From the IMG/VR virus record IMGVR_UViG_646311923_000009: DNA of 25,667 bases; one strand, 5' to 3'. This DNA is from a virus. Lineage: Duplodnaviria > Heunggongvirae > Uroviricota > Caudoviricetes. Made by a program: the position numbers. The first letter of the stretch is position 1. Every line of letters begins with the position of its first letter. Positions 18,001 to 21,000 of the stretch are shown in pieces.

Positions 18001-21000
18001 TTACTGGATGAACTGCCGGTTTTCACCTTTTTAGCCCATCGTAGCGCATCGATACTCATACGAACCCCAGACAGATATTTGTTTATCTGCAAAGTAATGT
18101 TGGTATTGCTGACGATACGCACGCTTGAAAGCAATAGCTTTTTCTATAAGTTCGTCAGTCTCACGTTCCACAACAGCTGGATCCGCAAAAAGTAGCCCTG
18201 ACTCCACCACATCGCCATATTCTTTGTTTAACCCGGCGATCATGTACGTAATGCTTTTTCCGTCAGTAATTTCACGATACAACCTGAAATCACTGATCCG
18301 GATAGCCGCCATAATTGCCGGAATCAGCGCCGTGAATTTTTCCCGCTTATCCCTGGTGTCGATAGATTTCCAGCGTTCGAATATCTTCACCCGGTTAACG
18401 CCCAGCGCCCGTTGATCAACCGCGCCATCATCAAACGTGACGCGTTGAACATCGATGTTCGGGCGTTCTTTCAGAGCCCAGAATGCTTCCGTGATTAATA
18501 TCGTCGCCTGCTCCTGTGTCATTCCTGGTCGGCATACCCAGGCATCCAGAGCCTCACAAACCTGTTCAGGGGTGATTTTCATTGTTCAACCGCCCCGCCC
18601 GCTTTGCCTTACGATATTCGTCATAAACTTTGGGGTCGTACTGAAGTTCCCCGCCGGATGCCTCTTGCAGGCGCATCGCGCGACCTTCAGGAACCAGTTC
18701 CCCCCATGCAGCAATGCTTGCCAACCTAACTCCTGCGGCATTGGCAAGCTTTGTTTTGCTGCCAAAAAACGCTATAGCATCAATTTTCAACATATCGAGC
18801 TCCTTAGATTTTCCTAAGGAAACTAGATCGTAGAGAAACCTAAGTCAAGAAAAATTAGAATTCCCTAATATGAAAAACGAAACCTTCGGTGCTCGCCTCT
18901 TACATAGGCGTAAAAAATTAAAACTGTCTCAGGCCGCATTAGGTAAGCTGGTCAAAGTGGCTCACGTAACAATTTCTCAATGGGAAAGAGATGAAACACA
19001 GCCGGCGGGGAAAAGATTATTCGCACTGAGCCAAGCGCTTCAGTGCTCACCGACTTGGCTTCTTTTTGGGGATGAAGATAAACAACCAGGCGAACCGATC
19101 CCGAATAATCAGCCAGCCATTCTGACAGAAGATCAAAAAGAGTTACTTCAACTGTTCGACGCACTGCCTGACTCAGAGCAAAAGGCCCTGTTGTCAGAGA
19201 TGCGTGCTCGAGTTGAAAATTTCAACAAACTTTTTGAAGAACTACTTAAAGCTCGCAAAAGAAGCGCAAACAAATAACCCCTTTTTTCTCCACACCCTGT
19301 AATAAAAAGCACAAACTTTCAAACACTTGTGTTTTTTACACCAAAAAACTTAGGTTTTTCTACATAAAAATCTTGACCATATGCCTTAGGTTATTCTAAA
19401 TTTCACTCATCAAGACACCGCACGGTGTTCTCAGCAAACAGTTCCGCTACTCCGGCGTTAAGGGGAAATGAGGTCAGCATGGATACTATCGATCTTGGCA
19501 GCAACGAATCTCTGGTGTACGGCGTGTTCCCAAACCAGGACGGCACGTTCACCGCGATGACGTATACCAAAAGCAAAACGTTTAAAACCGAAAATGGTGC
19601 CCGTCGCTGGCTGGAAAGAAACTCAGGTGAGTGATATGGATTTCGACACAATCATGGAAAAGGCTTACGAAGAATACTTCGAAGACCTTGCCGAAGGCGA
19701 AGAGGCTCTCAGCTTCAGTGAGTTTAAACAGGCGCTTTCCAGTTAGGCAAAATCTAACGGCTGATAAGCGAAACAGCACCGCGAGGAATCAGTATGCATA
19801 AACGAGAACCCGTCATCATCGCGCCAGACTATACCGATGATGAACTTTATGAGTGGATGCGCCAGAAAATTAATGCAGCGCAGGATCTGAAATGGGCCAA
19901 TGAAGCCAGGGCTAAGCAGGCTGAAAAATCTGTCCGCTCTGGAGCAGGATATCACCAATTTGGAAAAAGCAGCGGCATTAAGCATTGCCAGAATGATTAC
20001 ATACCCGCGTTAATAGCTAACCAACGAGGATAAGGTTGGTAATTAAGGAGTTCTCTACGGGTCAGGTGGAGTGCGTGCGCCGGACACGGGTGAGCATCCG
20101 GCACGTTCTTTAAAAATCTGGATAGTCCCAACTTATTTAAACGGTTAATTATCTTGAGTTCATCCAGAACTTATTATTGCAAGCGGGGCAAAAAGTACGA
20201 AAATGAGCATCAAAGCGCATTATTTCCATTGGTTGCAGTACAGATATTACCTTTTTTCCAAAACATTGTGGGCAAAGATGCACTGTTATCTCGGTATCGC
20301 CTATAAATTGCTTCTTGGAATACACAAGAGTTCCAGAATCAAGCTTGTTAAGTTTGTAACCTTCCGCCTGTTGCTGAAAGTCTTCTATCTCTGCAATTTT
20401 TGCTTTGAGAGATGCGGCTTCTTCCTGATAAGAGCGCACCATCTCAATGAGCGATACGCATTCAAACTGAACAGACGTAAGTTTTGAAAGCATATCGCTG
20501 ACAGCGGAATTTATCTCAGTTTGAGTTTTGCATTCAGAATACCCTTTGCCATTACCGCAGTTTCTTTGATTGCCGACATTGCTGCTGAGAACTCAACTAT
20601 CACGTTACATACTCTTCTCGTTGTTGGGGATATCCAGATTATACAAATTTCTTGTTGTTGGGGAATAACAGGAACCACCTCGCCTGACGTGGTTAAAAGC
20701 AGGCACACAACGCGAAAGCGTACGGCGAGGTAGCTGGTTCATAGATAGCCTGTCGTTAAATTTTCGTCGACCGTGCGCTTCCGGTTGTGGCAGTCCGCGA
20801 AATGGCGCGGCGGTAAGTATGGCTGGGGTTTCCTCCATTGCTCCAGAAAATGCACCGGGTTGTCAGGTTGACCATACGCTTAAGTGACAACCCCGCTACA
20901 ACGCCCTCTGTTATCAATTTTCTGGTGACATTTGGCGGTATCAGTTTTACTCCGTGACTGCTCTGCCGCCCTTTTTAAAGTGAATTTTGTGATGCGGTGA

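Follow-up and report, generated by a model that had tools for sequence, protein, structure and literature searches.

This 25,667-nucleotide stretch of DNA, recorded in IMG/VR as IMGVR_UViG_646311923_000009 (Caudoviricetes) and here called the window at its full length, carries a gene related to dicA of the Escherichia coli K-12 prophage Qin, with repeats of the palindrome TTAG-N6-CTAA on both of its sides. This raises the question as to which protein reads these repeats and which promoters are governed by them. Integrated beside rspB-ynfA, the window represents a lambdoid prophage from Shiga-toxin-producing E. coli (STEC), and its five TTAG-N6-CTAA sites are highly likely to be the operators of a prophage immunity switch of the P22/Qin type. 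A preliminary description of the sequence had proposed that DicA regulates its own gene and represses both the cro-side and the dicB-operon promoters through the shared motif, a proposal supported by the published results for K-12 Oc and dicBp and for O157:H7 that are set out below; what it had overlooked is that the Cro-like protein DicC, by analogy with related switches, very probably shares the five sites.

Exact matches to TTAGNNNNNNCTAA number three in the window, against 0.24 expected from whole-window shuffles; with one mismatch allowed there are seven matches, five of which (sites 1 to 5, numbered by coordinate; Table 1) lie inside 18804-19399 and are confined to the two non-coding segments flanking the dicA-like gene. 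The whole-window one-mismatch count is by itself without enrichment (7 observed, 7.6 expected); the signal thus resides in clustering and conservation, and local shuffles were used instead. In 20,000 dinucleotide shuffles of the AT-rich segments 18794-18869 and 19278-19478 only (the two intergenic regions have a G+C content of 34-40%), the mean per shuffle was 0.013 exact and 0.21 one-mismatch sites, three exact sites were never reached, and the one-mismatch maximum was three, compared with the five observed. The centres of the sites (18810.5, 18836.5, 18861.5, 19356.5 and 19392.5) are A/T-rich and are spaced by 26 and 25 bp in the right-hand set and by 36 bp in the left-hand set. A tighter, asymmetric form, TTAGG-N4-TCTAM, fits all five sites and nothing else within the window; as it was derived post hoc from these same sites, its informative part is the absence of other matches. 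The TTAGG half lies on the minus strand in the three spacer sites and on the plus strand in the two sites downstream of dicA, and each set is uniformly oriented relative to the outward-facing promoter that it overlaps. The three perfect sites and the imperfect TTAGGTTTTTCTAC of the preliminary description are borne out by the pattern search and are non-random in the local shuffles. It had also rightly set one site against the dicA start, although the dicC-dicA spacer holds three sites rather than the two it counted, site 2 having escaped it; of the two sites it laid over the early-left promoter, site 5 does overlap the core promoter, whereas site 4 ends upstream of the -35 element. The TTGACC-N18-TAAATT promoter that it read upstream of ydfA was recovered by the promoter scan.

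The region 18566-19634 contains three open reading frames (ORFs): one of 75 amino acids (aa) on the minus strand and, after a 76-bp spacer, one of 135 aa on the plus strand, which a 201-bp spacer separates from the third, of 51 aa. The promoters in it are predictions from reading the sequence, the early-left one being found by the promoter scan as well. On the dicC side, the minus strand presents TTGACT-17-TAGTTT, directly followed by site 1 and then by AAGGAG-6-ATG of dicC; site 1 thus adjoins the predicted -10 element on its downstream side, covers the predicted transcription start and overlaps the Shine-Dalgarno sequence CTAAGGAG by 2 nucleotides (nt). This -10 element corresponds in position to that of K-12 dicCp, whose transcription start was mapped by 5' rapid amplification of cDNA ends (5'RACE); TAGTTT was missed by the promoter scan because only three of its six bases match the consensus. 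Site 2 begins at the last base of the -35 element and occupies the whole spacer between the -35 and -10 elements. On the dicA side, no Shine-Dalgarno sequence stands upstream of the ATG and the position for a -35 element is poor; with TAGAAT so close to the start codon, the dicA mRNA is probably leaderless or nearly so, and the geometry fits a weak, activator-dependent promoter. The K-12 dicA mRNA is among the leaderless mRNAs detected by differential RNA sequencing (Romero et al. 2014, PMC4681348).

On the other side of dicA, the early-left promoter resembles both K-12 dicBp (TTGACC...TAATCT) and P22 PL (TTGACC...TAAATT), and the distance between sites 4 and 5 is kept at 35-36 bp in other loci, matching the spacing of OL1 and OL2 in P22. 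The presence of the DicF RNA confirms that the repressed operon is of the dicBF type, dicB itself being present downstream according to the annotation of a 100%-identical RefSeq record. Between dicA and site 4, an A-run/hairpin/U-run element at 19303-19338, conserved in the O157:H7 copy and not reported by a simple terminator scan, may be the dicA terminator, which would insulate the repressed early-left promoter from read-through. The leader of the early-left transcript (19403-19478, plus strand) is an observation in its own right: it is conserved across genera (also in L001, L003, L005, L008, L010, L012, L016, L022 and L023) and is laid out as a CATCAA start region, directly a 5' hairpin (GACACCGCACGGUGUU in the window), then an invariant GTTCCGC and GGCGWTAMRGGG. 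The stem sequence varies between loci, and single-sequence folds show the hairpin in most of them; as an RNA element the leader has no Rfam match, and the one helix returned by RNAalifold is 4 bp long and shows no covariation. The leader may serve as a 5' hairpin that stabilises the mRNA or as an antitermination signal of the nut/put type.

The assignments of dicC, dicA and ydfA in the preliminary description hold, the products of the first two being 84% and 61% identical to K-12 DicC and DicA (the latter over 131 aa) and ydfA belonging to the DUF1391 family, with DicF and dicB following in order. The window DicA matches only helix-turn-helix (HTH) families in Pfam, and no Peptidase_S24 (LexA-like) match was obtained there; its residues 2-69 match the N-terminal domain structures of the P22 C2 repressor (1adr, 2r1j and 3jxb, the last two being C2-DNA co-crystal entries) with E 1e-21 in a PDB sequence search. 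The AlphaFold2 model (predicted local distance difference test, pLDDT, 87), built from an input alignment that excluded the K-12 sequence, consists of a five-helix HTH domain, a linker and two C-terminal helices, the C-terminal domain being helical and the model containing no peptidase domain; the recognition helix is H32-E39, HVTISQWE. The dicC-like gene is followed by a gene of the YdaT family. The Rem homologue encoded at some distance on the minus strand is, judging by its sequence, the likely induction route of the switch.

Experimental evidence on relatives is available from K-12, for which the operator names Oc, Om and Oa are used here as defined by Yun 2012 and Ragunathan 2023. The DicA operator Oc is TTGTTAGTCATAACTAACAA and has the same TTAG-N6-CTAA core as the window sites (Yun et al. 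2012, PMC3441716), so that the comparison with published dicA operator data proposed at the outset comes out in favour of the motif. A single A-to-C change in Oc (CTAA to CTCA) abolishes DicA binding and DicA-dependent repression in vivo, the spontaneous mutations that permitted cloning of the region were clustered in Oc, Oc overlaps the -10 element of the 5'RACE-mapped dicC promoter, and DicA bound there represses dicC and activates dicA (PMC3441716). Both K-12 intergenic regions contain three operator-like sequences each; DicA represses dicBp 22-fold, the antirepressor Rem relieves this repression, DicC is required for spontaneous switching, and K-12 DicA is without an Ala-Gly cleavage site, mitomycin C failing to induce dicBp (Ragunathan et al. 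2023, PMC10448788). Chromatin immunoprecipitation sequencing (ChIP-seq) of K-12 DicC places its strongest peaks on either side of dicA and yields as MEME motif the palindrome TT(A/C/T)G...C(G/A/T)AA (bioRxiv 10.1101/2024.09.21.614188). In O157:H7, which carries the same allele as the window (the dicA and dicC primers of Pan et al. match the window sequence), overexpression of DicA lowers dicB, while overexpression of DicC lowers dicA and raises dicB; no operators were mapped in that work (Pan et al. 2019, PMC6915034). In the open-access literature no published operator map was found for the window allele, and the operator strings matched only the Oc of Yun.

Conservation in homologous immunity regions had been set beforehand as the test by which the operator proposal could be refuted, and it shows the motif conserved at fixed positions. 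An alignment of DicA homologues led to 57 loci from contigs of one genome per species; the conservation set (n = 39) comprises the window, K-12 and 37 near-full-length loci. Relative to the DicA ATG, sites with at most one mismatch are found again and again at -65/-66 and -15/-16, and a downstream pair with 35-36 bp spacing recurs likewise, across Escherichia, Citrobacter, Enterobacter, Pantoea, Erwinia, Buttiauxella, Serratia, Rahnella, Yersinia and Rosenbergiella, while the rest of each locus (about 3 kb) has essentially no motif matches. In the OR1-like site, the per-column information is highest over TTAG and CTAA. TAGnAT never varies in the OR3-like site (2.0 bits per position), even in loci that have lost the CTAA half, as would suit a sequence that is both an operator half and a -10 element; in the OR2-like site the right half and the AGTCAA -35 element are well conserved and the left half is variable, the window and the loci closest to it having the best left half. 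Compared with the window, the O157:H7 copy has differences at three leader positions and one central base in the right-hand region and at about 11 positions in the left-hand region, none of them a core base of sites 4 and 5; no core base is changed in any of the five sites.

The motif also follows the recognition helix of DicA: of 30 loci with the helix HV[TS][IV]SQWE, 21 have exact sites, versus none of nine with other helices (Fisher p = 2e-4), in a test whose reach is lessened by near-duplicate loci and by statistics that ignore phylogeny. Loci with other helices (L013, L017, L020 and L023) have other palindromes at the same positions, such as ATTGAGTTTTCTCAAT, which suggests a family-wide series of immunity specificities on one fixed scaffold. 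The other-helix loci carry, in addition, a P22-like TTAAGATATCTAAA beside the ATG. Within the TTAG type, position 5 of the half-site is a purine in 62 of 66 half-sites where the helix is AHVTISQWE and in 14 of 16 where it is SHVTISQWE, and a pyrimidine in all 28 where it is SHVSVSQWE, as in K-12; taken together, xHVTISQWE loci, the window included, have TTAGR in 76/82 half-sites and K-12-type loci TTAGY in 28/28. The sequences thus suggest that the window (TTAGRWW) and K-12 Qin (TTAGYYA) have different immunity specificities on a shared core. It is conceivable, if somewhat doubtful, that all HVxxSQWE DicAs share the TTAG core and have their specificity set one base inward, residues 34/35 possibly reading that base. 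If true, co-resident Qin-like prophages in STEC would be hetero-immune for DicA, DicC (84% identical between the types, with the motif TTNG...CNAA) could cross-talk between prophages and with host promoters, and a very widespread class of prophage repressors outside the SOS response would have a simple, testable specificity code. Across TTAG-type loci the DicA helix stays the same but the putative recognition region of the Cro-like partner does not, a correlation slightly in favour of DicA being the protein that reads the core; in non-TTAG loci the two proteins change together, leaving the co-variation test weak.

These elements can be assembled into a proposed mechanism. A DicA dimer, with its HTH domain homologous to that of P22 C2, would read the outer TTAG(G/A) half-sites via HVTISQWE across the A/T-rich centre. 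Bound to sites 1 and 2, at the transcription start and in the spacer between the -35 and -10 elements, it would block the dicC promoter and so shut off dicC, ydaT and the replication genes; from the right-hand operator it would also stimulate the weak, divergent and probably leaderless dicA promoter, as it does at K-12 Oc, until at high occupancy the filling of site 3, over the dicA -10 element and start, would bring about negative autoregulation. Site 5, between the -35 and -10 elements, would act together with site 4, 36 bp upstream, to block transcription of ydfA, DicF and dicB. DicC would bind the same sites in competition and repress dicA, and such repression from shared sites would make the switch bistable. 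Since DicA is without a self-cleavage domain, derepression would proceed through a Rem-type antirepressor or by flipping of the switch and not by RecA-mediated cleavage. For the window allele we infer the order of site filling, the cooperativity and the leaderless state of dicA.

Several points weigh against reading all five sites in this manner. Site-by-site occupancy by the proteins of the window allele is inferred from sequence. The other two sequence-predicted operators of the K-12 dicA-dicC spacer, Om and Oa, failed to bind DicA in vivo when each was assayed alone (PMC3441716); one or the other presumably contains the perfect core TTAGCATTAGCTAA (equating Oa with TTAGCATTAGCTAA is an assumption), in which case a perfect core would not be sufficient, and sites 2, 3 and 4 may be weak, dependent on cooperativity, or mainly DicC sites. 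In the Reg-Seq paper, the DicA site at dicB is rated as low-evidence and of unknown location. Conservation is confounded at site 3 with the dicA -10 element (TAGAAT) and at site 2 with the adjacent -35 element. The register of the motif, TTAG-N6-CTAA as against TTAAG-N4-CTTAA, differs from that of P22, the dyad being 3 bp away from the conserved G in DicA sites and 2 bp away in P22, so that the contacts of the P22 structure are not simply transferable. In view of the Om/Oa result, the number of the five sites that DicA fills unaided is the chief uncertainty. The same result lends itself to a narrower alternative, namely that only a subset (for example sites 1 and 5) are true DicA operators, the rest being essentially DicC sites or motif-like promoter elements; it is joined there by the agreement of the DicC ChIP motif with the same palindrome, by the coincidence of site 3 with the conserved TAGnAT -10 element and of site 2 with the conserved -35 junction, and by the degenerate left half of the middle site in most loci. 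This alternative is nevertheless unlikely: the middle site of the window matches seven of the eight core bases and is identical to site 4 at 13 of 14 positions, the extended form TTAGG-N4-TCTAM is common to all five sites, the CTAA half of site 3 is kept in most loci though a -10 element does not need CTAA, P22 C2 binds all three positional equivalents according to annotation, and weak, cooperatively filled sites are normal in lambdoid switches.

That the main binder is instead a host factor, either YjdC, a reported repressor of DicA targets when DicA is absent, or H-NS/Cnu acting on AT-rich DNA, would accord with the 34-40% G+C of the regions and with the antagonism of CnuK9E-H-NS towards DicA at Oc (PMC3441716). 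It is very improbable in view of the co-variation of the motif with the DicA recognition helix across genera, including its replacement when the helix differs, and of the Oc point mutation that abolishes DicA-dependent repression. Less probable still, and ruled out by the conservation analysis, is that AT-rich intergenic DNA has produced these palindromes by chance: the whole-window one-mismatch count is unenriched, as this reading would have it, but five of the seven matches fall inside 600 bp, the observed counts were reached in 0 of 20,000 local shuffles, the sites keep their positions to within 1 bp from genus to genus, and the diverged O157:H7 copy has no core-base difference.

Table 1. 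Coordinates of the five proposed operator sites, the promoters around them and the associated genes in the window
Feature	Coordinates	Strand	Description
Rem homologue, 86 aa	13193-13453	-	Adjacent to hokD, as in Qin; 71% identical to K-12 Rem
dicC-like gene (Cro analogue), 75 aa	18566..18793	-	84% identical to K-12 DicC; Pfam P22_Cro E 3e-13
Operator site 1 (OR1 / K-12 Oc equivalent)	18804..18817	-	TTAGATTTTCCTAA; minus strand TTAGGAAAATCTAA; exact
Predicted dicC (PR-like) promoter -10	18820..18825	-	TAGTTT, 17 bp downstream of TTGACT; read on the minus strand
Operator site 2 (OR2-like)	18830..18843	-	GTAGAGAAACCTAA; minus strand TTAGGTTTCTCTAC; one mismatch, 7/8 core bases; absent from the preliminary description
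dicC (PR-like) promoter -35	18843..18848	-	TTGACT; AGTCAA nearly invariant here in DicA-family loci and P22
Operator site 3 (OR3-like)	18855..18868	-	TTAGAATTCCCTAA; exact; stops 1 nt before dicA ATG
Predicted dicA (PRM-like) promoter -10	18856..18861	+	TAGAAT; inside site 3; 8 nt before ATG
dicA-like repressor gene, 135 aa	18870..19277	+	HTH_3; N-terminal five-helix HTH, linker, C-terminal helical domain
Terminator-like hairpin with U-run after dicA	19303..19338	+	RNA fold -9.2 kcal/mol, z-score -3.2
Operator site 4 (OL2-like)	19350..19363	+	TTAGGTTTTTCTAC; one mismatch, 7/8 core bases; ends 10 bp upstream of -35
Early-left (dicBp / PL-like) promoter	19373..19402	+	TTGACC-N18-TAAATT; promoter scan
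Operator site 5 (OL1-like)	19386..19399	+	TTAGGTTATTCTAA; exact; promoter spacer and first 3 nt of -10
ydfA (DUF1391, 51 aa)	19479..19634	+	First gene of the ydfA-DicF-dicB operon; Pfam DUF1391 E 5e-27
DicF small RNA	20920-20971	+	Rfam RF00039, 77 bits

The prophage around the switch retains genes for replication, antitermination, lysis, exonuclease, excisionase and integrase. Its operator region is found in 750 of 5,426 complete E. coli genomes, usually in one copy per genome, and the carriers include Shiga-toxin-producing strains of O157:H7, O55:H7, O103, O121 and O45. Between the early-left promoter and DicF, a ydfC-like ORF (19794-20033, plus strand) bears a frameshift according to the identical RefSeq record, and a ydfB-like ORF (19594-19746) is in the ORF list of the window and unannotated in that record; on the opposite strand between ydfC and DicF lies a 114-aa ORF (20149-20493, minus strand) with two CxxC pairs (zinc-ribbon-like), which is "hypothetical" in the identical record, the K-12 Qin annotation having no gene between ydfC and dicF. 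Near the Rem homologue is a hokD/sok type I toxin-antitoxin pair (13674-13976, minus strand; sok Rfam RF01794, 104 bits; hok-like ORF 13674-13886), and the annotation of the identical record adds a frameshifted fimbrial gene between the replication genes and hokD as well as the cargo virulence gene paa, encoding the AcfC-family adhesin Paa, at about 14168-14926 (minus strand). A match to the STnc100 small RNA family (9655-9821, minus strand; Rfam RF02076, 102 bits) stands directly upstream of a SASA-family esterase gene by the RefSeq offset (L002 position = window position - 6399). An ALIL pseudoknot (5669-5785, minus strand; Rfam RF01497, 121 bits), which we take to be an IS3-family transposase frameshift element, would imply an insertion sequence in the late region of the prophage.

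In terms of novelty, the locus adds one more case, well supported but ordinary, of a known switch, in an unmapped allele, and the understanding of how such switches work is left unchanged by its map. What is modestly new is the oriented five-site map for an allele common in STEC, the positional conservation of the sites across genera and the correlation between half-site position 5 and the recognition helix. Among these operators K-12 Oc alone has been tested so far; the immunity type is common, including in STEC, and the map, with its orientations, promoter overlaps and probable leaderless transcript, provides sites that can be taken directly into mutagenesis and reporter experiments in pathogenic strains.

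The annotated immC region of P22 superimposes on the window layout, from OR1-3 to OL. P22 OR1 is ATTAAAGAACACTTAAAT; OR2, ACTAAAGGAATCTTTAGT, runs into CAAG of the PR -35 element, occupies the position of site 2 and shares with it the ...TTTAGTCAAG junction with the AGTCAAG -35 element; OR3, ATTTAAGATGACTTAACT, abuts the c2 ATG as site 3 abuts the dicA ATG. With its start 4 nt ahead of the c2 start codon, the PRM transcript of the repressor is near-leaderless. PL has the same TTGACC...TAAATT hexamers with OL1 between them and OL2 35 bp upstream, centre to centre. The repressors are homologous in their N-terminal domains, the Cro proteins belong to the same P22_Cro family, and the P22 repressor contacts operator positions 2-7 and 12-17, leaving the A/T-rich centre uncontacted and read indirectly (PMC4267663). 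By comparison with the window, the P22 operators are 18-bp ANTNAAG-N4-CTTNANT sequences, C2 has a LexA-like cleavable C-terminal domain where DicA has a short helical one, and a third OL site is present, whereas two were found in the window, a scan of both intergenic segments at up to two core mismatches having returned no further site in either, the place about 19 bp upstream of site 4 included. The paaR2/ydaS/ydaT locus of CP-933P (O157:H7; Jurenas et al. 2021) has the same lambdoid trio of CI-, Cro- and CII-like genes with ydaT downstream of the cro-like gene, operators in the divergent spacer and a second set at a PL-like promoter; its repressor gene is leaderless and its behaviour bistable, as would probably hold for the window switch. 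Its repressor PaaR2 is unrelated, and its repeats, four palindromes, have another consensus, GTTTAGTAA.

Another close system is K-12 Qin, the switch described by Bejar et al. 1986/1988, Yun et al. 2012 and Ragunathan et al. 2023. It shares the chromosomal neighbourhood rspB-ynfA, the gene order (ydaT/ydfX-like, dicC, then dicA, ydfA, DicF and dicB), a non-cleavable repressor of 135 aa, the presence of Rem and three exact TTAG-N6-CTAA sites at equivalent positions. Of these, Oc stands 18 bp from the start of dicC, a second site stops 2 nt short of the ATG of dicA, and TTAGTCATGGCTAA takes the place of site 5, with TTGACC of dicBp on one side and TAATCT on the other. The differences lie in DicA (61% identical, with the helix SHVSVSQWE versus AHVTISQWE), in position 5 of the half-sites, a pyrimidine in K-12-type loci and a purine in the window, in the unrelated central 6 bp of the sites, and in the middle and upstream OL sites, which are degenerate in K-12 (3 and 2 core mismatches) and near-consensus in the window; unlike K-12 Qin, the window prophage retains ydaT and its replication, lysis and integrase genes. 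Set among these systems, the window carries a lambdoid-type operator set governed by a repressor of the antirepressor-controlled class and not of the RecA-cleaved CI/C2 type.

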